This document shows, piece by piece, positions 18,313 through 58,278 of a stretch of DNA of 64,000 nt; within the stretch, counting starts at the first letter, position 1; each line of letters starts with the position of its first letter. The notes beneath the pieces were generated by a model. That model saw nothing but the letters and a program-made list of their open reading frames with translations. It did not search any database and had not been told where the DNA came from. This stretch comes from a virus (Duplodnaviria; Caudoviricetes): positions 32,001 through 96,000 of IMG/VR virus record IMGVR_UViG_3300012344_000011. The stretch is one strand, 5' to 3'. The position numbers and the translations under genes are program-made.

Positions 18313-18740
18313 AAGATTTAGATATTTTTATTCATTATTTGCCTGGTTCTCCTGCTTTAGAAGTGACCGATTATGGCGACTGGGTAGATTTATATTGCTA
18401 TGAAGATATTGATTTACGCAAAGGTGAATCTTGTTATATTTCGCAAGGTATCTCAATGGCTCTTCCAGAAGGATATGAAGCAATTATGGCATCACGTAGT
18501 TCTACTTTTAAGAGATATGGTATTCTTCAACAAAATGGAATCGGTGTGATTGACAATATGTATCGCGGGACTGATGATATTTGGATGTTCCCTGCGTATG
18601 CTACAAGAGATATTCATATCAATAAAGGAACGCGAATTTGCCAGTTTCGTGTTCAGAAAAAGCAGCCTAAACTAAATTTTATTTCTATGCAGTCTCTTGG
18701 AGAAACTAACAGAAATGGTTTCGGAAGCAGTGGTGTCTAA
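18306..18740 (+). CDS. dut: dUTPase (trimeric type)
   Basis: DWVDL, SRSS, GVIDNMYRG, RICQ and RNGFGSSG motifs. Confidence 0.92.
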   Translation: MVEDLDIFIHYLPGSPALEVTDYGDWVDLYCYEDIDLRKGESCYISQGISMALPEGYEAIMASRSSTFKRYGILQQNGIGVIDNMYRGTDDIWMFPAYATRDIHINKGTRICQFRVQKKQPKLNFISMQSLGETNRNGFGSSGV

Positions 18741-19219
18741 TGATTTTGCTTAGTTTAGATCAGGCATTAAATACTACAGGCTGAGCTATTTTTGATAATA
18801 ACAAACTAATTGAAAATGATTCTTTCAATATAAAAGCAACTGCTCCAATAGAAGTAAGACTTGGTAGTTTTTGAAAGACGCTAAATTCTTTATATGAAAA
18901 ATATAATTTTGATTATTTAGTCTTTGAAGATATTCAGAATCAGAATAATAATGAAACATATAAAAAGTTAGCTTACTGCCAAGCAACAATATATCTTTGG
19001 TGTTATTTTAAAGAAATAAAATGTTCTATTATGGCACCCAGTCATTGGCGATCAATTTTAGATTATAGTTTTGGTCGCAAAAGAGAAGAACAAAAAAAAG
19101 CCGCAATGAATCTTGTGAAAGAAAAATGCGGCTTGAGCGTTTCTTCAGATGAAGCAGATGCTATTTGTATAGGTCTTGCTTATTTGCAAGAAACATCTAA
19201 AAATAAAAGTGCTTTCTAA
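18740..19219 (+). CDS. RuvC-like Holliday junction resolvase, 2 TGA=Trp
   Basis: MILLSLDQALNTTG(TGA)AIF, VFED, PSHWR and DEADAI motifs; TGA at 18782 and 18872. Confidence 0.88.
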
Positions 19220-19245: not shown

Positions 19246-19413
19246 ATGGAGTGCTTTAGTTTATCTGCTCTAAAACAGATTGAGCAAATTCTCTTTTCAT
19301 ATGAATCCTCTTATGATCCAAAGATTCCTCCTTTTTGTATTAAGTATGGAAAAGATTATTACTTTTATGAAATAAAAGAAATATTTGGTAAGTATAGAGT
19401 TATTACTAGATAA
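19246..19413 (+). CDS. Small hypothetical protein (55 aa)
   Basis: Strong RBS AGGAGG, ATG 19246, TAA four nt before the tRNA. Confidence 0.55.
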   Translation: MECFSLSALKQIEQILFSYESSYDPKIPPFCIKYGKDYYFYEIKEIFGKYRVITR

Positions 19414-19417
19414 AAAT

Positions 19418-19514
19418 GTACCGCTCGCCTATTGGTATGGCCCTGGTCTTCAAAACCAAGAGTTGGTGGGGTCCAAACTCACCAAGCAGAGTTCGATTCT
19501 TTGGCGGTACGCCA
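19418..19514 (+). tRNA. Opal-decoding tRNA, anticodon UCA, long variable arm
   Basis: Acceptor GTACCGC/GCGGTAC, G73, encoded CCA; D stem GCC/GGC; anticodon loop CT-TCA-AA (TCA at 19450-19452); T arm CAGAG-TTCGATT-CTTTG. Confidence 0.92.
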
Positions 19515-19570: not shown

Positions 19571-20524
19571 ATGAACATAAAAGATAGATTATTACTAACT
19601 TCGATTTTTGAAGATAATGAATGGTTAGATAAATATTGTGAATTAGTTGATAAGAAAGAAAAAAAGAGAAAAAATTTAGATGAAAGAATACAAATACACC
19701 ATATTCTTCCACGATATTATTATAAACAACTTGGTATTCCTATAGACAATTCTTTAGAAAATACCGTTGAGTTATCATTCAATCAACATATATTGGCGCA
19801 TTATTTTTTATATAATTGTTCTTTAGGAGGTATGAAGCAAGCAAATTTAGGTGCTTTTGCTCTTCTAACAGGTGGCAAGCGAATCAAAAATTTTGATGCA
19901 ATAGACCTGAAAGAACAAAAAGAAACTTATCAAAAATGGGTTGATAGTCTATCTAAAAGTGTAATTTGCTTAGAGACTAAAGAATTTTATTCAAGTGCAA
20001 AAGAAGCTTGTAGAAGAACAGGCATTGATTATTCTTCTATTTCAAAATGTTGTAAAGGAAGAAAACTTACCGCTGGTGGTTATCATTGGAAATTTTTTGA
20101 AGACTATAATAATAATATCGAAATAGAATATATAGGTGGATATAAAAAACGTAAAAAAACAAAAAGACAAGAACCAGCACTACCAATCAAAGTAATAAAT
20201 TTAGACACTAATAGAGTATATGATAATGTTCGCCAAGCTGGGAGAGAAACTAACACTAATGAGTCTTGCATAAGAGATGTTCTAAAGGGGAAATGTTGTA
20301 CTGCTGGTGGATACAGATGGCAAAGATATGAAGATTATCTTGCAGGAAAAACTGTTGATACATCACGTAAAAAAACCAAGCCAGTAAAAAATGTAGAAAC
20401 GAATGCCGCTTATCCTTCTATTGCAGAAGCGTCTAGACAAACGAAAATTGACAAAAGTCAAATAGCAAGATGCTGTAGAGGAGAAAGCAAAACAGCTGGT
20501 GATTATCATTGGGAATATGCTTAG
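19571..20524 (+). CDS. Free-standing HNH-type homing endonuclease with three NUMOD1-like repeats
   Basis: IHHILP...N.V.L....H..AH motif; three V.C/N.ET....S...A......I..CC.G...TAGGY.W repeats. Confidence 0.85.
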   Translation: MNIKDRLLLTSIFEDNEWLDKYCELVDKKEKKRKNLDERIQIHHILPRYYYKQLGIPIDNSLENTVELSFNQHILAHYFLYNCSLGGMKQANLGAFALLTGGKRIKNFDAIDLKEQKETYQKWVDSLSKSVICLETKEFYSSAKEACRRTGIDYSSISKCCKGRKLTAGGYHWKFFEDYNNNIEIEYIGGYKKRKKTKRQEPALPIKVINLDTNRVYDNVRQAGRETNTNESCIRDVLKGKCCTAGGYRWQRYEDYLAGKTVDTSRKKTKPVKNVETNAAYPSIAEASRQTKIDKSQIARCCRGESKTAGDYHWEYA

Positions 20525-20528: not shown

Positions 20529-20572
20529 AAAAAAATGGGGGAGTACACTTCAAAAGTGTACTCCCTTTTTTT
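20529..20572. terminator. Bidirectional intrinsic terminator between the convergent halves
   Basis: GGGAGTACACTT-CAA-AAGTGTACTCCC flanked by A and T tracts. Confidence 0.9.
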
Positions 20573-24760: not shown

Positions 24761-25288
24761 CTATTTTTCTTGTGGTTTTTTATTTCTCGCTTTTGGATTG
24801 ATAGTTTGTTTTTCTTTTTCGTCATCTTTCTCTTCAAGATAATTATCTAAAGCAGTAGCTACAGAATCAATAGAGTTACCACTACCTTTATTAGCCACTG
24901 CATTAGCAACAGCAGTAATTAACTTTACGCCATCAATAGATTTATCGTGGCTGTTTTGATAATTCCATTTTGCGGCAGGGCTTATAGGGCAATCTTTGAT
25001 CATTAAGCATCATAGCAAAATTATTACAAAGATTGTTCCTACAACATATCCAATAGCAACAAGATCTTTGAAGAAGGCGGAGAGTCCTGCTGGTGTAGAT
25101 ACGTCTGGGTTAAAGGCTATTGTTGCTGTAGATAACATAAAGATACAACCAAAAATTAAAAGAAAAGTTCCTATTAGAGCCATAGAAATTCTAAATTTAG
25201 CTTTTGGGTGTAAGTTAGAAGGTTTAAAATCTGACAGTTTTATTTTTCCACGCATAGCATCGTGCGTATGTTTCGCTTCTTCTGTCAT
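24761..25288 (-). CDS. Two-TM membrane protein in the lysis cassette, 1 TGA
   Basis: ORFs 25010-25297 and 24761-25003 are in one frame, joined by TGA 25010 (VIILL-W-CLMIKD). Likely start is ATG 25288 after AAGGTGA. Confidence 0.7.
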
Positions 25289-25300
25289 TACATTCACCTT

Positions 25301-25600
25301 CTATTCTGATTGAGAATTACTAGATGGTAATAATTTTTCTACTGTTTCCTTTGAAGTGGTGCTTGCGGTGATTGTTGTTGCAGTAGAATTAGTATTGCTA
25401 CCTTCTCTTGCGGCATCTACATAAGCTTCGGCCGCAGCATAAATTGCAGTAGAAAGTGCGGTACAAATGATACCCGCTACCATTACTGTCTCATTACCAG
25501 TTGCAAAACCAGCGCAAGTTCCTCCAATAGAAGCTAGAAAAGCGGCGATTGCCATCCAGAATTTACGACTACCAAATTTTTGTAAAAAATTAGTGTTCAT
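25301..25600 (-). CDS. Holin
   Basis: KFGSRKFW, two hydrophobic helices and EAYVDAAR motif. Confidence 0.8.
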   Translation of the reverse strand: MNTNFLQKFGSRKFWMAIAAFLASIGGTCAGFATGNETVMVAGIICTALSTAIYAAAEAYVDAAREGSNTNSTATTITASTTSKETVEKLLPSSNSQSE

Positions 25601-25622
25601 AAGTTTCTTCTCCTTTCTAAAC

Positions 25623-25659
25623 AAAAAGAAAGACCGCACTCGGTGTAAAGTGCGGTCTT
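25623..25659 (-). terminator. Terminator-like hairpin directly upstream of the holin RBS
   Basis: AAGACCGCACT / AGTGCGGTCTT 11-bp stem with a T-rich tail on the - strand. Confidence 0.7.
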
Positions 25660-25670
25660 AGCCTGACCTC

Positions 25671-25946
25671 TTATAAATTAAGACGGTCGATTCTATCATT
25701 AGCACGTTTGGCTTCGTTCTCCGCAGAAATTGCAATTGTTCTAACGTCTTGAAGATCTCTATTAAATGCTCTAACATCAACCTTTAAATCTTTAATGTCA
25801 TTAGAAATAAAGTCAAGACTTGTTTTTATCTCTGACGTTTCGCCTTTTTTTTCTTCTACATCAGACCGCATATTTCTGATCCAACCAGAGACACCAACAA
25901 GACAACCAATGATAGCAATTATAATAGAAATTGTTGCAATATCCAC
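25671..25946 (-). CDS. Single-TM coiled-coil protein (holin-associated type)
   Basis: N-terminal hydrophobic helix, heptad repeats, AKRANDRID C-terminus. Confidence 0.65.
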   Translation of the reverse strand: MDIATISIIIAIIGCLVGVSGWIRNMRSDVEEKKGETSEIKTSLDFISNDIKDLKVDVRAFNRDLQDVRTIAISAENEAKRANDRIDRLNL

Positions 25947-26009
25947 GTTCTTTCCTTTCTATGGTTATGCTATCTATTCTATTATTATATATTTTTTTGA
26001 AGGCGATAA

Positions 26010-26321
26010 TTATTCTAATTTGTCCATTTCTTTTGGGCAGTTTTCGCCGCATCTAATCAAATCTAATCTATCGTGTGCGGCATCTGCTTTTGCTTTGGTT
26101 TTTAGAGTTATTTCAAAACCTTCTTTGATATTTCCACGTATATCTTCTATTTGGCATTTCATGTCTTCAACATCAATAATCAAATGATTAATTCTTGCTT
26201 CTAGTGTTTGTAATTTATATGAAAGATTGCTTGCATTATTTTTTCTACTTTGTTTTAGACCAAAAAGACCAGCCACACAACCGATTAAGGCAACTGCTAT
26301 ATATATTATATCAAAATTCAT
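26010..26321 (-). CDS. Single-TM coiled-coil protein, probable paralog of the neighbouring gene
   Basis: IGCVAGLFG helix and ADAAHDRLD C-terminus. Confidence 0.6.
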   Translation of the reverse strand: MNFDIIYIAVALIGCVAGLFGLKQSRKNNASNLSYKLQTLEARINHLIIDVEDMKCQIEDIRGNIKEGFEITLKTKAKADAAHDRLDLIRCGENCPKEMDKLE

Positions 26322-26322
26322 A

Positions 26323-29300
26323 TTATGAAGTCACCTTCCAAGTTCCAAGCGCGCGATATGAATATTTACCAGTAACATCACCAGATGTAGCTCGAAGCAA
26401 AAACACTTGTGGTGTTTGTAGATTACTCAAACCACTTCCAGTTTCAACTATAAATGCATTGTCTGAGGATATAAAATTACAATCGCAATGTTTAATCGAA
26501 GTAAATAGTTTAGTATATTTTGTTCCTCTAATTGTTACACTAAATTTTAATGAAGACGACAATGAAGTATTACCAGGAAATCCGTTAGTATGTCCAGTAC
26601 CGCTATCATATAACGATCCCCATGAAGATGATACTGAAACTGTTGTTGAAGAAGTCTGTCCCCAACATTCAGCCACTCCGCTTGCTCACATTCTATATGT
26701 CCAAAAATCACATTTGCCTTGAGCAACAATATAGTCTGCTATTGGAGTAGTCCAAGCAACTGGTGTTCCGTTACTAAAATAAACTGGCTGTTTATTATTA
26801 ACACCAACAGTGGAAATACTCAATTTATTAGCAGTTTTAGCATTTGTTGCGCTCTCAGCAGTTTTAGCATTTGTTGCGCTCTTAGCGGTCTCAGCACTTA
26901 CAGCACTCGTTGCAATAATTTGTGCCCCAGAATTTTCTTTAATTTTTAAAACACCGCTAGCCAATGTAACATCACCATTTAGCGTAGCTCCCATATTACA
27001 ATTCAAAGAAATAGAATTTTTATAATTTAATGCAATTTCTTTGTGATAATCTAATGCAACAATATTATTGTCTTTTCTTATAACAATATCACTATTCAAT
27101 AGATTGATTTGATCTTTATCTACAAAGAATGTTGCACCATCTCCTGGCGCAGGCGTATAAGCAGAACAAGATGGTCCTTTCTCTACCTTTAAGGTATCTT
27201 TAAAATTTTGTTCATCTGCGCTTGATGCAGAAGATATTGTAATTGTTCCCTCAAGAGATAAAAAAGTATATTTCGTAGTATCTTTTCCTATATCTGGTGT
27301 CAAAGGAATTTCATCTTTTTTAACGATAAATTCTACATCACTTGAAATAGAATACGTTCCAGTCTCAGGTATCTCTACTGTTGCAACATAGCCCACAAAA
27401 TCTTTTTGTTTGACGAGATTTCTTCCTCCTGTTACAACAATATCCCTACCATCATTTTTCTTCTGCGGAGGATAGATTGCAAATCCTTGTGTGCAGCTTG
27501 TTTCCATATTGTTTATAAAACCAGAAGATGAACTTGGTGCACCAATAGAAAGACCAGTTCCTCCTGCAAGGAAGTCAATAGTAAAAAATGATTGAGTCAA
27601 GTAATCTGTCGCAGAAACAGACCAAATATTGTCACTACCACTAAGTACAAGCTCAACCTTATATTGTGAATCAACTAAAAAACCTCCTTTTGGAAGCTCT
27701 AGGCAATAACTAAAAGATTGCGATTTTTCCCCATAATCAAATAATGGAGGGGTGTTATTTGAAAGACGGTAAAAGGTAACACCGCTCTTTTCACTATCTT
27801 CGTCATTGATTTTTACTTTTAGGGTAACCACTTTTGGTTTTATAGAGCTATCTGCATAAGGCTGTGTCTGAACCAATGCTCCTGTAATTTTTGCATACAC
27901 ACCGTCATCATCTAAAGAACCATCTTTCTTACATCTCATCAAAGTAAAATTTAGTATTTGCGGTTGAAAGATAACGGGTGTCAATTTTACTGTTAATTTA
28001 GGACTTTCTTTACTTCCAAGGATATAAGAATTTTCTGTATTTGAATCTTTAGTCATTTCAGAAGTAGACAAATAATATTCAGTACCAGATTCAATTAGTT
28101 TTCCACTATAAATCCAGCCACTAAACTTATTTGTTTTTGTGCTTTCACCTTGAGGTGTCAAGTAAATTCCTAAAAGTTCTTCTGAATTATCCTTGTATAT
28201 TGGCGTTTCTGGCTCTTCAATGCGAATATTTATCTCAACAGGTTTTGTAAAGACTTTCTCTGACTGTCTTACGTAAAAAGTTTTATTGCTTTCATTGTCT
28301 ACTTTACAAATTGTTTTAGGCGATAAATACTTAATAATCGAAGAAAAATCTTCATTTTCAGAAACTTCCCATTTACGTTCTTTTGCTTCTTTATATATTT
28401 TCGTAAAATTTGTTATAGTAATTTTTCTTTTTATTTTTGTCAAAGTGTATGGAGTTGCTTCTTGTTCTCCTTTAAACCAAAGAGAAAGCGTATATTTGTT
28501 AGACTCATTGTTATGTGTTTCTTCAACCTCTTCTAAGAAAGAAGTCTTTATGTCATCAGACGTTATTATTTGTGTTTCTGGCAATGTAATTGATTCATCT
28601 ACAATAGCAGTTTTAAGGTTTGTTCAAATTGGCTTAGTGAATGTTATGTCTTTTGTTACTATATATGCACCATTCTTTGTTTGCTCTTTTTCATCTTTGG
28701 TTTTCCAGTCAATAAAATTTTTGGTAGTAGTTATTGTTCTTGTTGCTATTTTAGTCTCTGTTAGAGAAGAATTGTTTGGATCTGTCTGTGTTATATATGT
28801 ATGCTTTATTATTTCTGACGTTATTTTAGATTGAACACCAAACTCTTTGTTAAGATCAATTTTATTGCCAGCAGTAAGATGAAAAGTCTTATTAATATTA
28901 ATTTTATCTTTATCATCATAAACAAAAGTAATGTCATAGATTTTGTCCCATTGAGCATAAATACTAATAACATTATCTGGATTTGTTACAGAAAAATATT
29001 TATCTTTAGCATAAATTGTATTTCCTATTTTTCATCCTGCAAATTTATATCCATCTTTTGTTGGTTTTATTTCTGGAAAATATACATTAGTTGTTACATT
29101 AGAAAGAATTTTTTTTGATTCTGTTTTCCAAAGTTTATCTCCATTATAATATTTTAGCGTGATAGTTTTCTTTTCTTTGGCTGGAATTGTGATCCAAAAG
29201 TCTAAAGAATCCGCTGAGATACTATGAAAACTTCCATTATAAGCAGTGCCAGTTGAACTGTCCCAACTTATTGTAAGATATATAGCATAACTAGAATCTT

Positions 29301-29568
29301 TTCTAGTATAAGTATAAGTAGCAAAAGTATCTATAGAACGTTCACCAGATCCAGACCCCCAAGAATAAGGCCCTCACTCATTCGTTGTACCATCATTCTT
29401 GTATAATGTCTCTCAATAATTACCACCAAAATTGTCAGTATAATAATAATCATAACGATAAATCTCTGGGGAAATAAAGTAATTATCATCATTTTGACTC
29501 TCATGCCAGTCTACACCAATTCGTAAATTGTCATTTGTACCAGGCACAACTTTCCAATCAATACCCAT
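26323..29568 (-). CDS. Tail fibre / receptor-binding protein (~1081 aa), 5 TGA=Trp
   Basis: Single frame from ATG 29568 with TGA at 29413, 29374, 29032 (PTKDGYKFAGW), 28624 and 26686 (WTYRMWASGVAECWG). Also an FTIDFLAGGTGLSIG motif. Confidence 0.85.
26831..26886. repeat. Tandem 27-bp repeat (2 copies) encoding an AKTAESATN-type fibre linker
   Basis: GCAGTTTTAGCATTTGTTGCGCTCT(C/T)A occurs twice in tandem. Confidence 0.9.
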
Positions 29569-29569
29569 C

Positions 29570-32260
29570 TTATCCCTCCTTCTTATTGACTAGCCATTTT
29601 AGACCAATATTTTTTTCGCCAGTTCTTAAATAATCAGACCCTTCTCTTTTTTGCCATATGAAAGAACTTATTTGTTGTCTATCTAAGATCTGAGTTCTTT
29701 TGACATATAGTTTATCTTTTGTAAAATAAGCAATAGGTATTTGCGGCGATCCATCAGAAAAAAATCCAAGACCTTTATCTGTCGCAATTAGATTAACATT
29801 TTTTTGATCAGATGTATCGTCTTGTGTGATCCATCCTAGATATGTACTTATATCTTGATTGCCCTTATTTTCAATAATATCGTCTAAAGTTTTCTTCCCG
29901 CTAGCAGAGGTAAGAAGAAAACCAATTTTACTATTATAAACAAATTTATCATTTAGACTAAAACAAGCGGGAGTTCCAGTTGTTTCCTTTGTGTTTACAG
30001 AAAAGTCAGTTCCACTCAAAGTCATTTTTCCATTTCCAGGAGTTTCAATATCAACTTGAGAGGATGAAATACTAATATGACTACCTTCAATTGAATTTCC
30101 TATAATAATATTTGGAATATTACCTTCTGTAGATAGCTTTATTAATTCAAGCTCTTTACTATCAACGGTTTCAGACATTATAATACCAGAACTATTCATT
30201 TTTAAGTTATTACCATTTGAAGTTAATTGAATTGGAAAATCACCATTGTTAATTTCTACTGCTTTATTTTTAGTAGCCAAAGAAGATATAACTGTTTCTG
30301 AATTAATAGATAACTTTTGATCCTTATAAACAATAGCATCTTTACCAAGAGAAAAAGTTCCGTTATTGTTAAAATAAAAACTAGGAGTTGAGCCGCCTTC
30401 CACGGAAGAAGAAAGACCAGTTTCAGTTATTATAAGTCCACCAATAATTCCTTTTGTAGCAGAAACAGACCCGCTTTTACTTATTGAAAAAATAGGTTCA
30501 CCATTAACATTTTGTTTACAAGTTAGAAAATCTTCTTCAGATGAAATTGTAACCATAGACCCATCTGCTCCAATAGAAGAAAGACTATTAGTATTGATAG
30601 CAAAACCACCAATTTTTCCGCTAAAGGCTTCAATATTTCCCTTTACTGATAATAAAGATGTCGTTTTTTTCGTCTCTTCATTTTTTTCATTGATTAAAAA
30701 TAAAGTAGGTGACTTTATATTGCCAGAATTTAAATCAATAGAAAGTCCGTTAGTAGAAAAAAGTTCATCTTTGTCTTCTTCATAATTAAGAGATTTCAGT
30801 ACACCAGCTTTGATGATATTAGCACTTAAAAAATTTGTTACCAATGAATAATTATTATTACTATCTTTTTCAACACCCCAGCAGCCACTATATTTTTCCC
30901 AGTTTACTTTAGAGATTTCTTCCTCGTTAAAACCTAGCAAGTACTTTGTGACAGCTAATTGATCTTTTAATGTCTGAGAAGAATCTATTGCTTTATTTGT
31001 TGAATCTATTGGAAAACACCAATCTGTCGATGCATCTCCTTCTTCTAATTTTAAAGTTTTTGCCTCTATTCTTACACTAGTAAAAGTGGTAGCAGATGTA
31101 TCTTCACTTTCTGTAAATGAAAAACAAACAGCTCAAACATACTCATTTGTTTTTAAATCTTCTATTTGAAGGCATTTTTTAAAAATAACACTTTCTGTTT
31201 TTATATTTATGTTTTCTACAGAAATTCTTCTCTCTTCTTTTGTCTGTCTAGATCCGATTATTATAGAGACATTTAATACAACCGTTCTATTTGCAGTTGC
31301 CCTGAAAGATAATGTATAAAACCCTTTATTCATAATTTTTTCAACATTTGTAACAAGAATAGATCTGGTAATAACATTATTATTTTTTTCACATTCTTTT
31401 TCTTCTTCATTAATAATTATATCTTTTTCAGTATCTTTCAATAAATTTTCATTAGATCCATTCATTGTAGATTTAGAAATAGAGAGATCGTCGTTGAGCA
31501 ATCCTAGCCTTCCTGCTTTTGAAATACCAAACCAACTATTATCATTAGTTTTAAAAGCGAGGGCGTTGCGATTAACTCTAAAATATTCTGATATATTTTC
31601 ATCTTCATTAGATACCATATCATCGTGCATCGAAAGAAAGTCTTTACCAGCCTCTAAACGTGAACTTTTTGCATAACCAAGCGTTGTTGTAGTTCCAAAT
31701 TGTGCATAAGGTTCATTCGTTTTATCATTCGCTGCACTATATAAAGAAACACCATTAACACCATACTGTGCTATTACTTTGTCATTAGTATCACCTTTAT
31801 TTTTATACTTAAAAGCTAAAGAAGTATTTCCAAGACTAGCTTTAAAACCACTTTTTTTACTATTGTATATATCTAATGTAGCACCCTCTCCATCTTTAGA
31901 AGAGAACTCCATAATATCTGCGGAGCTAATAGAAGTCATATACCATTTTTCGTGAGAACACATAAAGTTCACTGTTTGATTATCTGCCCAGCCATTTACA
32001 CTTGTATTTGTCAAAGGCTTGCTTCCTGCATAAACTGGGAACTCACTTTTGCCTACCCGCAAAGAAACATTTGCTGCGGTGTTTGCATAACTAAAAGTAA
32101 TTGAAATTTGAACACCGTCCAAAGGTGCGACTTCCTTGTCAAACGTACATACTTTGATAGAAGCATTTCCCTCTGTAGCACAGCTACCAGTATAAACGCC
32201 AATACCTTGAGCATCTAATTTTCCTTTTGTTACTACTAATGAATTTGACACACTAGCCAT
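29570..32260 (-). CDS. Tail spike/fibre-like protein (~896 aa), 1 TGA
   Basis: Two track ORFs in one frame joined by TGA 31133; KLEEGDASTDW and GKIGGF/GIIGGL repeats. Confidence 0.8.
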
Positions 32261-33125
32261 TAGCAAACACCTCCTTTTCTAATGATTCTACTGGGATATT
32301 ATCAACAACACAAGAGAATTGTGTAACATCCGATAAAGCACTTTTCAAAAAGCTAAATACTCCAGTTGCATTAGAACTATTTGACATATTCCCATCAATA
32401 TTATTTCAAGAAAGTGTATATAATAAAGAAATACTATATTTATTCAAAAAATCTGTTACTTCTTCTTTTATTGATTGACCGTTCCGCAAAAGAGTACATA
32501 CTATAGTGATAGTACCATCATCATCTTTGACAAAGCTTCCTTCGTTGCAAACAATATCCACACTATATATACCTTGCGGCACAGTCGCAATATTTATTGT
32601 ATTTGTAGCAACTAATTCTTTATAGTCTTTTGAATTATAAATATTGCATAAAATAGAGTCAACATCTGCGGTATAAGAAAAATTCAATGTTCCGTCCTCT
32701 TGAAGTAAATTTCCTAAGTCTTCGTTCAGTCTAAAAGATGTTCCATTCTTTATACCAAAAATAACAACATAATAACTGACTGAATCTGTCGCTAACTGTC
32801 CATCTTTATATAATTTGATAGAAACAGTTTTCTTTTCTTCTCCTTGACTTAAACTTAACACATATACTGGTTTTTCTATTTTTACAGAGAAGCCTTCTGG
32901 TGTTTGCTCAAGAATAGAAGCACTTTTTAAACTTTTCACAAGAGCTGTATAACCATTCTTAGTTTCTGTCAAACTCGTTTGTATATCTTCTAATTGAGAA
33001 TTTAATTCAGCGATAATTTTATTTTGAGAATTAACAGTTGCTTCTAAATCTTGTTTTATAGATGCGCCAGCGATCGGCCGCACTTCACCATTAAGATTGA
33101 TATAAGAAATCTCTCCTGTCGCCAA
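32253..33125 (-). CDS. Tail-region protein (290 aa), 1 TGA
   Basis: TTG start after AAGGAG; reads through TGA 32406 to TAG 32253, overlapping the next start. Confidence 0.75.
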
Positions 33126-33143
33126 AATATCACTCTCCTTTAC

Positions 33144-33181
33144 AAAAAAATAAAGGCGGCTAGGAATAAACCTAACCGCCT
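33144..33181 (-). terminator. Intrinsic terminator-like hairpin
   Basis: AGGCGGTTAGG / CCTAGCCGCCT stem plus T tract on the - strand. Confidence 0.7.
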
Positions 33182-33251
33182 ATCTCATTTTAATCATATT
33201 CCTAATTATATTATAAAAAAGAAATAATATAATTATACAAAATTGTCAAAA

Positions 33252-36200
33252 CTATATTCTTCTAGTTGCTTTCGCCGCAGTAATAGACATTTGCTGATTG
33301 ACCGCAAGTGGCAAAGAAATAGTTTTTATTTCATACTTTCCAATAATCCCAGATACAGGTTCTCTAATTTCTACCAAAGTATTTGGCTTTAGATAGAAAA
33401 TAGGTTTAGCAAGAGACATATTTATTTGTTCTTGATAATCTGTATGCGTCATCAGATTATATCTCAAAGTATCATAAGCACCCTTGCTTCCACCGCCAGT
33501 TGAGAAATGAGAATAAATATCACTATTAACTCTTAATGGACTACTATAGCCGTTCGCTTTTAGTAATTCTTCTTCCTCTTGGATGCGGATTCTTTCATCT
33601 TCGTCAACGCTATTTGATACAAAAACAAAACCGAAATCAGGAGGATCTTGCGCAAATAAACAGTTCACTTCATCATCTTTTACAACGATTCTACGGCAGC
33701 CTATATTAGACACACTATATTCCCCCCATTTACTGGTAGACGCATCAAGTATATCTAAGAAATAAGAACCTACAATTCTATTATCAACATATCCTGTGTT
33801 AATAATAAGAGTATCATTTTCATTTTCTGTTTTTCCTTGCGATAAAACCGCACCATCTTTATCTTCTGCAACAAGCTCTACACTTTCTCCATCAATATTT
33901 TTATAAGAAATAACGCTAGAACTTAGACTATTTAGTACAACTTGATCATTAGAATAATAATCATCACTTGTTTTGGTTGCTGTCTTAAAAATTTGTTTCT
34001 TGAGATCATAAATCACAGGCCAATTTGCTAACAGCTCTGCGTAATATTGACTTTGTTCATTACCAACAAAACCACTCTGTAATCCTTCAAGAATGATTTC
34101 TGTTCTTCAATCTTTTGGAATATAGGCATCTAATTCAGTTTGTTGGACTATTGGATTAGCTTCATCTACTGGGAGCTGTTCCATAAGTTTTTTATATGGA
34201 CCTGTGTACCAAGTTGAGTTACAGTTCATAGAAGCTCTGTTTTCATTAGTAGTCTGCTTCATAATTGGAGCAATATTGTCTTTTAAGAAATCAATATAAT
34301 CATATCCGCCCTTCTTATTATCCCCGTCTCCATTATGATAATAATAATGTGTTCATTCAACATCAACAAATTGTTTTTTATTCATGTCCCAGATATAAAA
34401 TTCAGGTTGTTGAACAAAGTAAGTATCTTGAATATAATAAAAATTTGTTCCAGGAACTATTTCAATATTTTCTGCTACACCTATTTTTTCTAACATTTTA
34501 TATCTATCGTATAGCATAGCTAAAAGTAAATCTCTTTGCTGGATAAGACACTCTTTTATTTTTTGTCTTTCTGTCTTAGCTGCTCCAGCTTCATAAAATT
34601 TATCAATATATTTATTTATATATTCAATATATTTTCTAAGTTTTGATAGTGTTTCTTTTACCAAATTAGAAAAATTTCTGTATCCGTCTAAAGTAATTTG
34701 ATGGGTAGGAACAATATAAATATGATCAAAACTGTCTAAACATTTAGATAAATCAACTTGATTCCAATATATGTCTCCAATAGAAGAGGTGAAAGAAGAC
34801 TCATATTCACTATATTTCTTTTTATCAATAATATATAAAACAACTTTATAAGACTCTTTTAGTTCTTGACTCAAAGAAGTATTCTCAATTTGACCAGTTA
34901 ATTTATTAATAAAAGATTCTTCCCACGTAGGGCTTCCATTGAAAAACCTTATTGGATTGCTTATATTGTTTTTATAAAGTTCTAAGAAGAAAGCCTTTAT
35001 TGTTTCTACCAATAAGGTTTCTTTTGAAGCATAAGGATTATCTATAAAAGTATCAATATCACTTCTAATAGATTTTAGTTCACTAGAGCTTGCGGGAGTG
35101 AGGCTATCATATATTGTAGTATTATCTTCTACTGTTATTGATTCTTTGATAGCTCCATCTGCATTTCTAAAGTCAGCAGAAGAGCTTGCTTTTCTTGTTA
35201 CCTTAAGTTCTTTATTAACATCAAGCCTGCCATAGATAACACCAATGTCTCCAACGATTGGAAGTGTTTCAGTGCTTGTTAAGATTTGCGGCGCAGCTAA
35301 AGTATAATTATTAGTAACCGTATCTTTATAAACAAGTATATTTGAATACCCTTTTTCATTTAGTCGCGGTTTATTATCAATTGCAAAATGATAAATAATA
35401 TTGCCGCCATTATTACCACTCTTACCAATTATAACATAATCATTTTTTATATTCTGATATTGAGGAGAGACTGAAAAACTAGTTATATTAGAAGAATCAC
35501 TAAATAAATAAACAACGTCTCCACCAACAGGATCATAAGAATAATCTTCGTCTGAAAAATTTTTTGTCCATTCATAAGTAGACTTAGAAGTATTCAAATA
35601 ATTTTTTATTTCTTGAAAATGAAAAACACCAAACTCATCATAGAAATATTCATAGTTACCTAGCCACTGCTTCAAGGTATCTAGTAATTGCGTGACAGTG
35701 CTACCTGCGTCTAAAGTAAGTTCTTTATCATAAACAAAATCTTCATAAACATATCCTACGTCATATCCACTTTTGAAGCATCTTCCACCATATCTTCCTG
35801 GATTGACTGTCGCTAAATCATCTTGGCGCCGCACTTCATATTGTCTCTCAACTTGATTATTGATAATTACGTCTTGCCAAATTATCCATAAAGGAGTAGA
35901 ATCGCTTCATTTCAAGGCTCGTCTAGCTTTTTCAGGAACGTCATCAACCAAAATATTTGAATATTGTTCACCACCGAAATGATTCACCGCCTCTTGGATA
36001 ATTTGTCTAACAGGAACTTTCTTTTCAACTTGTTGTCCTTTTACAATATCTAGAGTTTGATCAAATCTTGTTGTAGCAGGTAGCATTCCTCCAATAGTAC
36101 CATCTAATAATGAAATTTTATCTTTCAATTTTATAGAAATACTTAGTGCACCAGTGCTAGCAGCTGACATAGAAAATTCAGTTATAATCATTACCCCTTG

Positions 36201-36536
36201 CGGAAACCATAAGATAGGATAATCTTTATAGTTGCCAGTATCGTTCTTTACACCAATTTCTAGGAAAATTTTTTTCCCAATAGAATAGTCAGCTTTTGTT
36301 GTATACATATCATACTCAAAGCCATTTACAGTACAATTCAAAGAACAACTAACGCGGGCAGCGGATGAGCCGTCTTTTGATAACGACCCACCCGTAATAA
36401 CGCCTTCTAAATTTTTTATTTTCTTTTCTGTCTGAAAATCTAATAAAGTAATTTTTACATATCTCTCTTGGAGAAAAATTTTATCAATTTCTTTCAAGAA
36501 ATCTTTATCTTGTAAATATGGATAATGTACTATCAT
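33252..36536 (-). CDS. Tail/baseplate hub-like protein (~1094 aa), 3 TGA
   Basis: Three track ORFs in one frame; TGA at 35907, 34353 and 34107 (KDWRTE). ILWFPQG, GNYEYFYD and PIFYLKPN motifs are typical of phage tail proteins. Confidence 0.8.
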
Positions 36537-39500
36537 TTCCATTCCCCTCCTTGTAAATTCCAAGAGAAACAAGATTGTTATAGTTACAATCTGCAATTTC
36601 ATACATTGTTGCAGAGAACTCATATAATCTTCTGCTAAGCCGCGCTTCCGCGGATAGAGAAACATTGTTTAAGATAACGACTAGGTTACCCTCAGTTCCA
36701 CTTCTAAATAGTTTAGGTTGACCATCATTTAGCCAAGCTAAAACCTGCTCTCTAAATTCTCTTTCAATTGCCCATCTATCTTCCATAGGAACAACATTAT
36801 AGTCAAGATGTTTAGCAGCGTCGTCAAGTGAAATATAAGGATAATGCGGCGAGTGGTCCTCTTTTGTGCAATTGTTTATTTTTGAAATTAGTGTTTTGCA
36901 GTATCCTTCTCCTAGTAAATCACTAATAGATAAGAATTTATTTGATAAGTTATCGTCAAAAGAAATTAGTCCAGTAATACCAATTTGTTTATATTTTAGA
37001 GTTCCATTTTTAGTAAACACTGGATATTTACCACCAATTGTTTCAACCATTGATCGTCCGACTTTACTTGTAAAGTTGTTTATCTTGAAGTTATAACTTA
37101 GTTTCAAAATTCTATTTCCTCTAAGCAAAGTAGCATTATAAAAATTATTTGAAACATTATTTATCTGCTTTACTTCGCCCGCTTCTTGCGCTCCAGAAGA
37201 AAGTTGAACAGCATATGTATAATCAATACCACTTTTTAGAATAGGATCAAAGAAATAATAGTCTTGATTTCCATCCTCTTTCTTAGGAACAATAGATCTT
37301 TTGTTCACTTTCAACCATGTGCTATAATTATCTTCAGAGCTTGCTTTGAAAACATCAAAGCTAATAGTTTTATTCTCATCTATCAAATTAGAACCATTGA
37401 TAGAAACTCTTAAAGTATTGTAGCCATATTCTTCTTCAACTTCATCTATTGAAAATCCATTAACGAATAATTCATTGAAACCAGCATTGTTTGACGGATG
37501 ATAATAATCATTGATATGAATTTGATCTACTTGTTCACCAGAGTACCCATTCTTTGTTGTGTATCTCCAACGAACAGAACAATCTGAATTAGGAAGTCCG
37601 TCTTTTGTAAAATCAAAATACTGCATTAGTCCATTGACTTTATATCCAGACAAAAGATTGTCTTTAGGATTTTTATCAGCGTCACCCGCAAGAACAACTT
37701 TATTATTTTTCAATATATCAATAGTAAAACTTTCTACATAATCATCAACTTCATTTTCGTTGATGGTCTTTCCAGTGAGAATGTCATAGAAAGTTAGTTT
37801 GCCACCAATGAAACTATTTATTTTAGGTCCAAAACCATCTGAAGGAAAGCTAGTAATTACGCGGCAAGGTGGAATTGGTTTGATAAGTGTAGCACTTGAC
37901 CATTCACTAAAATTATCTCTACTTGAAACCAAATATTTATTCAATTCTTCTATATCTGTTAGAGTTGAAAATTGATCATTTGTAAGAACAGTCGCGTCAA
38001 ATCTTAATTGAATTTTATAAAGCTTATGTTGGAATTGCTTATCGACAATTTTATTTACTGGTAAAGTAACAGTGCCAATATAAGTATTTTCATCAAAGCT
38101 AGTGTTCTCCCAGGGAACAAGAAGAACCTTCGCTCCATCCACAAGAACAGACTCGTTGGTTAGTTGATCAACAACAGACATTTGAATATACTTGATATTT
38201 TTTATTTTATCATCATTATATTCTGGCATAGTATATTCAATCACAGCATCTTCATTCCATATATTAGACTTTTGATATGTCTCAACTAAAGGAGGATATA
38301 ACTTATCGTGTTCTGCTGCATTATTATTTTCCCAAACAGCATAAAGAACTAAATCTTCATTTTTTGTATATTCTTTTGCACCGTCAGCATATTTATAGAA
38401 TGTTCCTTCTCCATATAGATTTGTTGTCCATCCTAAGAAAGTATACCCAAGTCTCTTGGGAATTTCTTTATCTTTATTAAAAATTGTATAGGTTTCATTT
38501 CTGTTCTTGAGATCAACTAGTGTTGTAAGACCATATCCACCATTTAGTATATATGTGATAGTGTTTACTTGTTTTTCCCAAATTGGGTAAAAGATTATAT
38601 TTTTATTAGTACCTTCGTCAAGTTGAATTTTTTGGCTACTATCTAGTGGAATCAAAAACTTCTTATCAGTATTGTCACTCTCTCTCAAATTATTAGTAAT
38701 CCAACCTGTGAAAACATAGCCCTCTTTTGTTGCCCAATCTTCGGGGAGAGTTGTTCTTATTGCATAAACAGTGCCAGTGTGTTTTTTGTCAGTTACAGAC
38801 TTTGCGGAGCTGCTTCTATTTTCTCTATAAGTAATATTGAATCCAACGTGTTCAAGTATTAGAGGAATTTCTTGTAAGAAAGCACTATAGTTTTCTGTCT
38901 CAGGCTGAGATGCAATTATTGTAATTTCTTTAGAATCTGTAGAAGTTGAGCCTGCTGGATGTGGATTATTCCATATACATCTAATCTCATTTAGATTATA
39001 AGTATTTTGCGTAGATCCAAGAACTTTTTCAATAGAGATATTTTCTTTGTCATTATTCTCTTCTGTGTCATCATTCTTGGCTGCAAAAGTTAGTTTATCA
39101 ATGTCTCCTACATATGTAAAAAAGAAAGTTTCTTCACACGGATTATTACTACAAGGAATAACCCACCTACTTTGATTTAGAGTTAGTGAAGGCTGTTTCT
39201 TTACAACATTTACACGGTAAACAATTGACTTGTGAGTTGGATCGTTGTCAGGAATATCATTTCTACTTATATAGTTACCATTTGGGTCTTCAGGAATTTT
39301 AATTTTTAAGTAGTGATTGTCTCCAAGTTTTCTTCCAAGTATATAAAATTTCTTTTCGTTAGTAATACCTCCAAGTTTATATTCTATATACTTGTCTTGC
39401 GATCAAGTGGTTTCTCCTTTTTCATTTATTTCTTTTGTAACGAGTCCTATCCGATCTATTTTAACAGGAGAATCTAAAAGATATTTGAAACTTACCCAAT

Positions 39501-41244
39501 TTTCTTCAGTACCTAAACTAATCGGAACAGTTAGTCTATTTTTATCATCTAAACGTCCGCTTGTTTCATCTGTATTATCAATACGAAAGTTTGGATCTTT
39601 AATTCCAGTATATTTTGCAACTAACTTAATATTTGATTCTGTAAAGAAATATTCATCTACATCTCAGCATAAGCAAGGTTTTCCAGCAATACTGGCTTTC
39701 TTTGATACACAAACTTCACTATCACCATTTTTATAATAGAAACCATTGAACTTATATCCCTTTTTATAAACATCATCAAATGTAATAGCTTGTCCATTAG
39801 CTTGGATCTCTGTATCTTTGCCACCAAAGCACCAGGTGCTATCTCCATTAGGAGGATTTTTTTGTAAATTCAAAAGTTCTTCAGGCTTTACGTTTGAATA
39901 AGTCTCAGGAAGTTTATATCCTTTGAGTCCATAAAAGAGAGTGCACTTACGATCATTCTTTTGTTCATCATATAATGGAGTACCATTATCTTTATAAAAA
40001 GAAATAGTAATTTTTATTGGTTCAAATAATGCGGAGAAAGTAAGTTCTGTAGAACCAACTTTTCCAGGCTCATTACATTTTTTTAACTCTTCACTAAAAG
40101 TTCCAAAGCCTTTTAGTGCAATAGATTTGTTTGTAGCATTAGGATCAAACCACCAAGGATCAAAAAAATTCCTCTTTATTTCTGGTTTGACATTTGTCCA
40201 GCCTTCTCCATTTTCAAGTTTTTCCGCAAGAAAACCCTCACCTTTACTATAAACATTATTATAAAAATTCTTTGCTATCGTTTTATCATATGGGGGAGTA
40301 AAAGGAAGACGAGGATCTATTTCTTTTTTCTTACCTTCTGGTGCGTGAGCAGGAGCAACATCAGTAAACATACCTGCTCCATAAGAATAGACTCTTCAAC
40401 CAACTAAATTATGTCCAGGTTTTCTATAAATATTTCCTCTACAAATATAGATATTATTTTCAGGATGGTCTTTATTTGTGTCCCAATATGAGTCTTGAAC
40501 AGGATATTCTTTGTTTGCAGTTAAATTTTCCCAGCTTGACGTTTCTTTTACACGATAATCAATGATGCCAGAAGATTTTGTATTATATTTTAGTCCAAAA
40601 GTCCAGTTGAAATCTATATTATCTATTTTTTCTTCTTTTTGTGCACCGTAATAAACTTCCATCCCAGTTCAATCTATGTGCAATAATAAAACACCAAGTT
40701 CAGAATAATCTTTTAATGCTTCTTCTGTTCAGCCTTCGTGATACTTGTTCTTAATAGTATTAACTACTCTAGAATATTCTCTCTGATAAAAGCCATCAAC
40801 AATATTCCACCCACTATAACTATTTGCACCAATATAATCTCCACTCCAAGGAACATCACCTTTTACTGAATCAAAAATTTCAGTACCTCTTCTATCATTA
40901 TACCGATGAAATAATTTATCTTCATAGTCTGGATCATAAGATAATACTTCATTTAGCATTCCAGTATCCGCTTGAGAATAAAATTTATTATATCTATAAA
41001 TTCTTAAATTGACGGATATTTTTTTCTTAGATAAATAGGTACAATTCCAAGTAACTTTTATCTTTATAAGATCATCTTTATCTTTTTCTGTTTCTGAAGA
41101 TAATACTCATTTATATTCCGGACTCGCATTTGGTTGTCGTTTGCAGCCAATTATAATGCTATTATCTTTGGAAAGGGTATAATGACCCTTTCCAATATCA
41201 TCAAGTATTCTTTCTTTTGGATCTAACTCTGTTTGATCTGCCAA
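36505..41244 (-). CDS. Large tail protein with Listeria/Bacteroides (InlB B-type) repeats (~1579 aa), 6 TGA
   Basis: TTG 41244 after AGGAGGT; TGA at 41107, 40729, 40669, 40396, 39664, 39403. KEGYVFTGW and RLGYTFLGW...LYAVW repeats; TIGGKYP and LFRSGTEGN motifs. Confidence 0.8.
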
Positions 41245-41258
41245 TTCAATACCTCCTT

Positions 41259-47200: not shown

Positions 47201-47573
47201 TATTGTCTGCGTCACTTCAAGTTTCTTTATTTATAATTATATTTCCACCAACTTTAGTATAATTTGATAGAATATTTGCGTTTGTTCGCTCTTCTTCTTG
47301 ATCAAGAGGTGCAATCTCAGCTAAACCGAGGATATATTTTACATTATCAAAATTACCTTGCGGGACTTGCACATAAACAAGATCGCCAATATTATATTTT
47401 TCAGAATTATTACTATAAGCTGCGATTTGTCCGCCATTATAAGAAGCTGTATATTGATTGTCGCTTTGAACAGAAACAATTGATGCTTTGACCGTTTTAT
47501 CACTGTTTGTGCCAGAGCTGTTTTCGCTAATAATTGACATAGCTTTTAATAGTGCTCCTGTATAATCTGCCAT
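41259..47573 (-). CDS. Large tail protein (~2104 aa), 3 TGA
   Basis: Four track ORFs in one frame joined by TGA at 47217, 43899 (SINGWDG) and 43011. Confidence 0.82.
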
Positions 47574-47661
47574 TAAATCACCCCTTTTATCTCCTATAAT
47601 TTTTTATATTTCTCTATATAATTAAAAAACAAATTATACTAATTACTGTCTTTCGCCCAAT

Positions 47662-47690
47662 AAAAAAGGAGGACTCATAAGAGTCCTCCT
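47662..47690 (-). terminator. Intrinsic terminator after the tape measure gene
   Basis: AGGAGGACTC-4 nt-GAGTCCTCCT plus T run. Confidence 0.85.
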
Positions 47691-47695
47691 AGATT

Positions 47696-56600: not shown

Positions 56601-56836
56601 GTCAAGTCTAAAGAATTTATTTTTGGGTTAAAAGCTTTCTTTAAAGCTACTTCAAGTTGATTGATTTCTTTAATTGACTGTTTTATTTCAGCTGGTTGCA
56701 AGCCAGTTATTTTAGTAGCATTATTTGCGGTTAGAGTCGTTTTTAATTTAGTTAACTCATTTCGTAGTTGAGTAACACCACTTGCATCTAGAGTCGTTTT
56801 AATATTGTATACGATCTCATTAGAATATTTGGAAAT
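47696..56836 (-). CDS. Tail tape measure protein (~3046 aa), 8 TGA, probable ATT start
   Basis: Seven track ORFs share one frame; TGA at 56540, 54053, 53582, 52241, 52232, 51377, 50654, 48065. TP901-type core (TRQSAEEIGNGMKTI, AGKFQYNRF), poly-Gly linker, YDSGGYTG...LHQKELVLN C-terminus. Confidence 0.92.
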
Positions 56837-56853
56837 AAGTCATCACCACCGAT

Positions 56854-57651
56854 CTAACAGAATTGCCAGTGATATCCACCAGCAGTTTTTTGTTCATTAA
56901 TACAACACTTAGAAACTCCTGCGCTTGATTTTAAGCCAATTGCTTTTGCAGCTTTGCACGCAGAAGAATAAACCATATTTGTTTCTATACATTTAACAGG
57001 CTTTGCTCAAGCACTATTTTGACTTAATTTTTCCTTATGCTCTTCAGAGAATTTTTTCCCATACATGGGATTATTTTCGCCACAATATTTTCCCATTTTA
57101 CTTTCAGACAACTTCTGTCTATGTTCTTGAGATAATTTCTTCCCCTTTAAAGATTTGCCAAGTTTACGTATTTGTTCTCTCTGATTTTCTCTTAAACCAG
57201 AATCTCACTGCATTTTTGTGGTAGAACCACTTGGAAGAATCTCTATATTATTAGATTCACATGCTTTCTGAACGGTAATTGGAGCACAACGAAATTTTTC
57301 ACAAACTGCTCTTTCAGATCCTAGCTCAATATAAGCTTGTGCCAGTTCCTGATACCTATATTTTAACCTTCCTTCTCCGCCGAGGGTCATATTATAGCCA
57401 TTGTTACAACTATCTAAAAGAGAAATTCAATAGCGTTCTTTCTTATTTAGCTCAGAATCATCGCAATGCTCTAATTCTTGAATTTCAAAATTTTCTTCGC
57501 CATATTTTCTCATGGCCTTGTAGAGATAGTATGGAACTCCATTTTTGGCGTTTCTTTTGTGCTCTTTAAATCTATGTTCTATAGTTCCCGCAGTTTGGCC
57601 AATATAAATTTTTCCTGTAAGAACATTTGTTATTTTATAGATACAGCCCAA
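56854..57651 (-). CDS. Free-standing GIY-YIG homing endonuclease (265 aa), 3 TGA
   Basis: GCIYKITN...YIGQT, ERY(TGA)I...GYN, NUMOD3-like LSQEHRQKLS/FSEEHKEKLS and NUMOD1-like TAGGYHW; TGA at 57427, 57205, 57007. Confidence 0.88.
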
Positions 57652-57700
57652 AATATCACCATCCTCTCCTTGTTATCCTTTAATATGCATATTACAAGAT

Positions 57701-57740: not shown

Positions 57741-57764
57741 AAATTATTATAAAATGTCCAAATG

Positions 57765-58244: not shown

Positions 58245-58278
58245 TTTAACTCCTTTATAATCGTTCCGGAACAATTAT

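Follow-up and report, generated by a model that had tools for sequence, protein, structure and literature searches.

A phage tRNA(UCA) with a putative tryptophan-type pseudo-anticodon hairpin in its variable region

Phages of the gut in which TGA has been recoded from stop to Trp have been described in several surveys (Borges, 10.1101/2021.08.26.457843; Yutin, PMC7886860; Seki, PMC12636597). They infect standard-code gut hosts, use TGA as Trp mainly in structural genes, and carry their own UCA tRNA, which has been assumed to be charged by the host tryptophanyl-tRNA synthetase (TrpRS), while their close relatives use the standard code. The charging of these suppressor tRNAs was raised as an open question by Borges et al. 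(10.1101/2021.08.26.457843); in E. coli extract, many phage UGA suppressors were inactive, and 13 of the 13 phage tRNA(UCA) analysed inserted Trp (Seki et al., PMC12636597). Anticodon bases are major determinants for TrpRS, GlnRS, and IleRS, and hairpins that mimic an anticodon are listed in a 2023 review of tRNA identity only in mRNAs and viral tRNA-like structures (PMC9976931). The natural precedents cited for an engineered tRNA that displays a cognate anticodon outside its anticodon arm are mRNA mimics only (Mukai 2020, PMC7590224).

Here we describe a tRNA(UCA) gene of 97 nt, located at 19418..19514 (+ strand) of a 64,000-nt stretch of DNA, hereafter the window, which represents bases 32001-96000 of one 139,824-bp phage contig (IMG/VR record IMGVR_UViG_3300012344_000011; 34% G+C; estimated 96% complete). 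Beside the arm that bears the UCA anticodon, this tRNA has a long extra arm with the loop GUCCAAA, which corresponds to U33-C34-C35-A36-A37-A38 of the tRNA-Trp anticodon loop. The first-pass annotation of this DNA had overlooked that loop.

The second hairpin and its family

The gene was the single tRNA that ARAGORN located in the window, where it received the label 'tRNA-SeC', and ARAGORN, Rfam, and the minimum-energy cloverleaf together supported a 7/5 fold with an encoded CCA end. In Rfam, the gene matched only the generic tRNA model, RF00005, at 36.2 bits against a cut-off of 29, with model positions 1-71 fully matched and the long arm treated as an insertion. The five-helix cloverleaf was both the minimum-energy and the centroid structure in RNAfold. 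Specifically, it comprised a 7-bp acceptor stem (GUACCGC/GCGGUAC) followed by the discriminator G73 (19511..19511, + strand), which is a bacterial TrpRS determinant (rule from PMC9976931), and the CCA end; a 3-bp D stem (GCC/GGC) with U.U at the would-be fourth pair; a 5-bp T stem; U15 and G48 by standard numbering; and a 27-nt variable region that forms an 8-bp stem (UUGGUGGG/CUCACCAA, including one G.U) closed by a 7-nt loop. Thus, every anatomical detail that had been recorded previously, from the cloverleaf length, acceptor, T and D stems, and G73 to the variable-region stem, U15/G48, and C27.A43, was verified.

Two hairpins of this tRNA carry loops of the anticodon type. The decoding arm (hairpin 1; 19443..19459, + strand) has a stem of C.A plus UGGU/ACCA and the loop CUUCAAA, with the UCA anticodon at 19450-19452, and it begins one nucleotide after the D arm, as in a canonical anticodon arm; the C27.A43 mismatch leaves it with a 4-pair stem. 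The putative pseudo-anticodon arm (hairpin 2; 19463..19485, + strand) is the 8-bp stem of the variable region, and its loop, at 19471-19477, places CCA (19473-19475) in the register of positions 34-36.

We searched for related tRNAs with unbiased scans of IMG/VR, in which the pattern consisted of a UCA anticodon loop, a long spacer, and a T loop, so that the arm itself was left unspecified. These scans yielded 42 distinct long-armed UCA tRNAs, 11 of which were selC-like and 31 of which had the 7/5 fold. TCCA was present in the arm of all 31 long-armed 7/5 UCA tRNAs, compared with one of the ~80 other long-armed tRNAs on the same contigs. With the second loop anchored on its triplet, and independently of folding programs, the consensus across the 31 members was N-U-C-C-A-A-A, in which U, C, C, and the first A occurred in 100% of members and the last two A residues in 96% and 90%, respectively. 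Pairs 2-5 of the hairpin 2 stem were formed in 29-30 of the 31 members by four to six pair types, and this pairing was lost when the 3′ strand was slid. The 11 selC-like tRNAs constituted a separate class with the 8/5 fold and a long D stem, whose arm loops were unrelated and lacked CCA. They were found on contigs classified as viral in IMG/VR (L120, L123, L126, L130, L143, L125, L124, L115, L134, L156, and L257), and may represent host fragments or phage-borne selC.

Covariation was analysed on a MAFFT alignment of 30 family members, seven of which had been recovered with a pattern that included the motif. Both G73 and the pseudo-anticodon T-C-C-A were invariant in this alignment. Paired cells amounted to 90.1%, against 64.8% in shuffles and 39-49% in slid registers, and the covariation score was 0.681 versus 0.196 in shuffles, with none of 500 shuffles reaching the observed value. 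The inner five pairs of the second stem had undergone up to 15 double changes among the 30 sequences, while the outer three pairs were confined to the subfamily formed by the window tRNA and those of L144 and L560. The same subfamily shared the C27.A43-type mismatch. Position 27-43 was unpaired in seven of the 30 members and paired in the other 23, and the 4-bp anticodon stem highlighted in the first-pass annotation is consequently a subfamily trait, not a feature of the architecture.

DNA close to the window was detected in pig-gut and manure metagenomes from ~11 studies; among the public runs with such DNA, there were no RNA datasets. Wild variants, that is, assembled contigs from four of the ~11 studies, which carry nothing on transcript ends, differed from the window at 11-26 positions across 19100-19665, with flanks diverged by 2-5%. 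From 19379 to 19525 the only difference was a 1-nt indel at 19412, which lies upstream of the gene. This pattern indicates that the tRNA gene is under purifying selection in the wild. Because of the compensatory changes in 30 relatives and the invariance of the gene amid diverged flanks, the fold of the window tRNA is more than chance, and the search for homologs and covariation that had been recommended earlier thus came out in its support. From the same comparisons, hairpin 2 is almost certainly a selected pseudo-anticodon.

In a reciprocal scan, the D loop, the TCCAAA second loop, and the T loop were fixed and the insert was left free. Where the insert upstream of the CCA arm was a simple hairpin with a 7-nt loop, that loop was CUUCAAA in all 11 cases; ordinary tRNA-Trp genes that have a second TGGTAG upstream accounted for part of the hits as contaminants. 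A scan of bacterial genomes, with a pattern that contained the motif, returned mostly ordinary selC genes with TCC in a stem, together with ~8 true members on contigs of gut or rumen metagenome-assembled genomes.

Several other genes with a CCA second arm had different inserts. Those on L632, L641, L649, L655, and L658 were tRNA-Trp(CCA)-like, with ~28 nt inserted after the D arm and before the CCA arm; the insert was not a simple hairpin, contained the conserved AAGUCCGAGA, and was called an intron by ARAGORN. In a variant form, on L634 and L637, AAAUCCGAAC stood in place of AAGUCCGAGA. Additionally, L630:1533-1606 and L644:11189-11261 had a CCA second arm and a first hairpin with a 10-nt loop (GGUAAGCAAA) instead of a 7-nt anticodon loop, and ARAGORN called no tRNA at either site. 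We also considered an origin of the two arms by tandem duplication and rejected it: stem identity between the two arms within one tRNA was 4.45 of 10, against 4.43 between arms of different tRNAs, so that there was no duplication signal.

Trp as the meaning of UGA

When TGA was read as sense, minus-strand open reading frames (ORFs) of up to 3001 aa emerged in the window. The four closest complete IMG/VR relatives, which share 52-60% identity in the neighbouring RuvC protein, have a giant orthologue of ~2,790 aa that is open in the standard code, and we found no UCA tRNA in any of the four. We therefore aligned the phage proteins, with X at each TGA, to those of the four relatives, using real genes only, which provided 39 TGA sites. 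Trp accounted for 41 of the 104 aligned residues, against a background of 1.2%; the others were mainly Y, V, N, L, and M, with Ser at 2/104 and Cys at 0/104. In a likelihood comparison over all 20 residues, Trp was best, by 20.9 log units over Tyr and by >40 over Cys, which bears out the earlier claim that protein motifs demand Trp at UGA. At the level of single genes, the TGA at residue 25 of the RuvC-like resolvase gene (18740..19219, + strand; Pfam PF02075) corresponded to W in three of four relatives, and the TGA of the RecJ-like gene (1797-3587, + strand) to W in all four; in a comparison of the RecJ-like protein with the PDB, the X at TGA fell outside the informative alignment.

Across the 37 genes of the window there were 45 in-frame TGA and 177 TGG codons, such that TGA made up ~20% of Trp codons, and all 37 terminated in TAA or TAG. 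The replication module on the + strand held nine of the in-frame TGA, and the virion module on the minus strand held 36. These data indicate that UGA means Trp in this phage, which accordingly fits TGA-to-Trp recoding (code 4) on a standard-code background. Seven tRNAs were present in the whole genome, of which one reads UGA; the alternative that a conventional tRNA-Trp(UCA) elsewhere performs the decoding was thereby checked, and the window tRNA is the only UCA tRNA of the genome.

The genome-wide search for synthetase and release-factor genes that the first-pass annotation had recommended returned neither: there was no match to TrpRS (PF00579) or to release factors (PF00472) in the 139.8-kb genome, estimated to be 96% complete, in searches whose positive controls worked. 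Since the phage genome lacks TrpRS, tRNA(UCA) would have to be charged by a host enzyme. Of the previously suggested new tRNA-Trp architecture, the unusual tRNA-Trp, as opposed to a Sec or Ser tRNA, has stood, whereas the dedicated phage synthetase supposed to lie outside the window has not. Taken together, tRNA(UCA) is very probably a Trp-inserting UGA suppressor.

Identity signals, parallel families, and the possible reader of hairpin 2

The bacterial Trp acceptor set, as known from E. coli and B. subtilis, consists of A1-U72, G2-C71, G3-C70, and G4-C69 (PMC9976931). The consensus of the double-arm family, AGGGGC...GCCCCUGCCA, holds the full B. subtilis-type set as given in the same review (PMC9976931), and A1-U72 was present in 23 of 30 aligned members. 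The discriminator was G in 29 of 30 double-arm UCA tRNAs, compared with a background of 26%, and in 60 of 60 ordinary phage tRNA-Trp(CCA). Both of these groups use A-U, G-U, or G-C at the 1-72 pair, so that the G1-C72 of the window tRNA, a pair found in 19 of the 60 ordinary phage tRNA-Trp, is within the normal range. Regarding C34-C35-A36, the anticodon part of the Trp identity set, the decoding loop has UCA and the second hairpin has CCA in register.

The placement of hairpin 2 also differed from that of known extra arms. From the centre of the pseudo-anticodon to the T stem there were 13 nt in the window tRNA (19474 to 19487) and 12-14 nt in 29 of 31 members, matching the spacing between positions 35 and 49 of a canonical tRNA. 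In 258 phage tRNA-Ser, Leu, and Tyr, by comparison, the arms lay 8-10 nt from the T stem and had 3-6-nt loops. Relative to the D arm, hairpin 1 is thus canonically placed, and hairpin 2 is so relative to the T arm.

Long extra arms without an anticodon mimic were encountered as well. A second odd tRNA of the same phage, outside the window, is a tRNA(CAU) of 86 nt (G000:C1:6950-7035, minus strand) with A73 and an encoded CCA, the long arm of which has the stem UCAU/AUGA and the loop GAAA. Likewise, 87-nt tRNA-Asn(GUU) genes with a long extra arm occurred at L189:4717-4803, L189:9473-9559, and L213:8042-8128; tRNA-Asn is not normally class II.

When likewise unbiased scans were directed at long-armed tRNAs with further off-cognate anticodons, the same layout emerged in two additional families. 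Long-armed phage tRNA-Ile(UAU) numbered at least 83 distinct sequences, and among the matches listed GAU was in register in the second loop of 79 of the 83. Among these listed matches, the second-loop consensus was C-A-G-A-U-U-A (67%, 93%, 100%, 100%, 100%, 70%, and 73%, respectively; most commonly CAGAUUA), the three closing pairs were formed in 79 of 79, A73 was present in 78 of 79, and the loop was 13-14 nt from the T stem. Examples are G002 (IMGVR_UViG_3300045988_066310) c[2578-2667], which is a close relative of the phage described here, L111:11311-11401, and L279-L394; contig L111 carried both UCA and UAU double-arm tRNAs. Long-armed amber tRNA(CUA), labelled 'Pyl' by ARAGORN, were found in 25 distinct versions on L396-L492 (e.g., L403, L418, L438, and L492), and 24 of the 25 had CUG or UUG, the Gln anticodons, in the second loop. 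Their loop consensus was C-U-C/U-U-G-A-A, with U and G at 100% and the following A at 95% (e.g., CUCUGAA), their pseudo-stems were only ~3 bp, and they mostly had G73 and a weak 1-72 pair (U1-A72 or an A1.C72 mismatch), as in tRNA-Gln.

A matrix of motifs against families was diagonal, in that GAU, YUG, and CCA each marked their own family only, apart from a trivial C-CAGAU overlap, and each of the phage tRNAs (UCA, UAU, and CUA) is one position off the cognate anticodon. E. coli IleRS charged a UAU tRNA poorly until one residue of the enzyme was changed (Taniguchi et al., PMC3575796). From these parallels we tentatively propose, with rather less than even confidence, that phages use a general 'split identity' design for tRNAs with an anticodon unacceptable to the host synthetase, in which a new anticodon (UCA, CUA, or UAU) on one hairpin would serve the ribosome and the cognate one (CCA, YUG, or GAU), on a second hairpin canonically spaced from the T arm, would serve TrpRS, GlnRS, or IleRS, each machine thus being offered its own arm.

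For the window tRNA itself, we lean, although not strongly, towards a working opal suppressor that inserts Trp and whose hairpin 2 shows the cognate anticodon to the host TrpRS; taken by itself, the role of hairpin 2 as a TrpRS handle appears to us evenly balanced. Hairpin 1, with the loop CUUCAAA, would read UGA on the ribosome, while hairpin 2, with GUCCAAA, would join G73 in giving the host TrpRS the identity signal that was lost with the UCA anticodon, the enzyme reading C34-C35-A36 and G73. If identity is restored in this manner, the phage would need no synthetase of its own. Because both hairpins are canonically spaced, one from the D arm and the other from the T arm, either may stack under the D stem, with the enzyme and the ribosome each selecting a different arrangement. 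In the window tRNA, such alternate stacking would mean that the 8-bp stem opens at its three outer pairs.

Several points weigh against this proposal. GlnRS and IleRS are monomeric and have one anticodon-binding site each, and we know of no case in which the variable-arm position reaches such a site; with a single site, the enzyme could read hairpin 2 only after an unseen rearrangement. The second stem of the window tRNA is 8 bp rather than 5. Its acceptor stem (G1-C72, U2-A71, A3-U70, and C4-G69) keeps only G73 of the Trp acceptor set and lacks the A1-U72 and G2-G4 determinants that most family members have. With both arms removed, the top match of the body was tRNA-Trp(CCA), at only 0.40 and near Glu, Val, and Ser, such that body similarity leaves the isotype undecided. 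In Mukai's engineered version, the enzyme had to be extended by a fused, additional anticodon-binding domain (PMC7590224). Moreover, E. coli TrpRS can charge with Trp those class I phage tRNA(UCA) that have no second arm (PMC12636597; 10.1101/2021.08.26.457843), and the second arm is thus not strictly required everywhere.

This last observation would also fit a scenario in which G73 and the UCA loop suffice for charging by TrpRS and hairpin 2 has been selected for a partner that is not a synthetase, which we judge improbable. Candidate partners are a host T-box leader with the specifier UGG, through which uncharged phage tRNA would switch on host trpS or trp genes, an enzyme that modifies anticodon loops, and an anticodon nuclease; towards either of the latter two, the arm would serve as a sponge or shield. 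The loop is clearly selected and conservation leaves its reader unspecified; furthermore, T-box stem I gauges the anticodon-to-elbow distance, which the canonical spacing to the T stem would suit. However, the cognate triplet is the sole feature common to the Trp, Ile, and Gln families, which makes a synthetase the most economical reader. A modification enzyme as the common reader is at odds with the Ile pseudo-loops, which have U37 and A33; t6A cannot form in these because position 37 is U. T-box control, for its part, is largely restricted to Firmicutes, many of which have no GlnRS, and to our knowledge no anticodon nuclease acts on Trp, Ile, and Gln tRNAs together. The Ile loops bear equally on the idea that either hairpin enters the A site, so that one tRNA reads both UGA (by UCA) and UGG (by CCA). 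In its favor, the loop of hairpin 2 in the Trp family is of the anticodon type and complete, including U33 and A37, and it stands at the canonical distance from the T stem, as hairpin 1 does relative to the D arm. Nevertheless, tRNA-Trp(CCA) is already available from the host, the Ile pseudo-loops, with A33 in 93% and U37 in 70% among the matches listed, are unsuited to decoding, and the second stem measures 8 bp in the window tRNA and only ~3 bp in the Gln type, making such dual decoding very unlikely.

The first-pass annotation had recognized a SerRS identity set in the long arm and G73, and had allowed for ambiguous decoding of UGA. A class II tRNA charged by SerRS, or one of the Sec type, with UGA meaning Ser, Sec, or Cys or being ambiguous, is suggested by that resemblance, by the ARAGORN label, and by the presence of C11-G24, yet we hold it to be highly improbable. 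The counts of Ser and Cys at TGA sites given above contradict it. The 7/5 fold and 3-bp D stem depart from bacterial tRNA-Sec, in which the fold is 8/5 and the D stem 6 bp, and the genuine selC-like tRNAs recovered in the same scans form their separate class without the CCA loop. The SerRS acceptor determinant is G2-C71 (PMC9976931), and the window tRNA has U2-A71. The loop of its arm has 7 nt and lies 13 nt from the T stem, unlike the arms of 133 phage tRNA-Ser, in which the loop was mostly 4 nt and the distance 8-10 nt. A pseudo-anticodon hairpin with CCA explains the class II-like body better than SerRS identity does. Finally, hairpin 2 could be a functionless leftover, either the original anticodon arm of a tRNA-Trp beside an inserted hairpin or a tandem duplicate, since the 3′ two-thirds of the tRNA resembles a regular tRNA-Trp in which the anticodon arm and the T arm are normally spaced. 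We give this account almost no credence, given that the loop is invariant while its own stem and the acceptor stem have completely turned over in 30 relatives, that the same pattern recurs in three unrelated isoacceptor families, and that two arms from the same tRNA resemble each other no more than arms from different tRNAs do.

If a cognate pseudo-anticodon does restore TrpRS identity, it would offer a simple answer to how suppressors of recoded phages that lack their own synthetase are charged, and would represent a new kind of tRNA identity element and a natural uncoupling of codon reading from anticodon-based tRNA identity. The design also suggests a route to suppressor tRNAs, or tRNAs that reassign sense codons, without an engineered synthetase. 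In annotation, tRNA finders label double-arm genes tRNA-SeC or 'Pyl', or misjudge their isotype.

Genomic setting and relation to described systems

The + strand replication module of the window ends with the tRNA and an endonuclease gene. Gene order follows that of the relatives up to the RuvC-like gene, which has two in-frame TGA and is the last gene collinear with the standard-code relatives. It is followed by a 55-aa ORF (19247..19414, + strand), identified from the sequence, that ends 3 nt before the tRNA; by the tRNA; by a free-standing homing-endonuclease-like gene (I-HmuI NUMOD-like, with NUMOD1 in Pfam; 19571..20524, + strand), just downstream of the tRNA; and by a bidirectional terminator-like hairpin (20537..20567) between this module and the minus-strand genes. 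Because gene order with the relatives breaks after RuvC, the tRNA looks like an acquisition. The endonuclease gene was absent from this position in relatives, in which tblastn returned only paralogue-type matches elsewhere, and the tRNA may have arrived with it or have been spread by it. No tRNA was located within 10 kb of the RuvC gene in 80 relatives, blastn of the region against GenBank phages gave no match, and the related-loci search found no relatives of a 484-aa minus-strand protein.

With the code settled as TGA for Trp, genes of 1,000 to 3,000 aa can be annotated. The main client of tRNA(UCA) appears to be the minus-strand virion module (24761..63974), which holds the 36 in-frame TGA noted above. 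Its large genes, on the minus strand, include 47696-56701, 41259-47573, 36505-41244, 33252-36665, and 26323-29568; the first of these is the 3001-aa ORF and has eight in-frame TGA. Pfam searches of the large ORFs neighbouring 47696-56701 gave no match except for a Listeria-Bacteroides repeat in 36505-41244. On the + strand, in-frame TGA codons were present in the RecJ-like gene (one), a DNA methylase gene (4138-4839; two), a further replication-module gene (6431-6925; one), and a GIY-YIG homing-endonuclease-type gene (7729-8592; three). A homing-endonuclease-type gene with HNH_3 and NUMOD4 (60826-61605) also had three, and with three in-frame TGA each, these two mobile genes would likewise depend on the suppressor.

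Among described systems, suppressor tRNAs of TGA-to-Trp gut phages are well known, and the double-arm architecture appears to be undescribed in the papers of Borges, Yutin, and Seki, in the allo-tRNA paper, and in the 2023 identity review. Our search of the literature, which most subscription journals lay outside, turned up no account of a pseudo-anticodon arm in any natural tRNA. Another case in which UGA is read as Trp is that of Blastocrithidia, where the near-cognate anticodon of tRNA-Trp(CCA) gains UGA reading through an anticodon stem shortened to 4 bp. The window tRNA differs in having the cognate UCA, so that this logic is not needed, and in that the 27-43 mismatch is restricted to a small subfamily. 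In the recoded gut phages introduced above, the tRNAs are anticodon variants for which no second anticodon-type arm was described (10.1101/2021.08.26.457843; PMC7886860; PMC12636597), whereas here that arm is the defining feature. Bacterial tRNA-Sec (selC) and allo-tRNAs (PMC5389517) share the UCA anticodon, the long extra arm, G73, and the ARAGORN label with the window tRNA; they have 8/5, 8/4, or 9/3 branches, a 6-bp D stem, and Ser identity for their first charging, in contrast to its 7/5 fold, 3-bp D stem, and TGA that means Trp. The thrS operator and viral tRNA-like structures (PMC9976931) provide hairpins that copy a cognate anticodon loop and are read by the matching synthetase, but they reside in mRNAs or at the ends of viral genomes, for regulation or 3′-end charging, while the mimic reported here is inside a decoding tRNA, beside a different anticodon, with reading by TrpRS as the proposed function. 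The engineered tRNA of Mukai 2020 (PMC7590224) comes closest in arrangement, in that a hairpin of its variable arm shows a cognate anticodon (GUG), by which the synthetase is recruited, while the real anticodon reads a stop codon. That tRNA is synthetic, was built on a 9/3 allo-tRNA chassis, and was used with HisRS fused to an extra anticodon-binding domain; the tRNA(UCA) of this phage occurs naturally and folds as 7/5, and no modified enzyme is involved.

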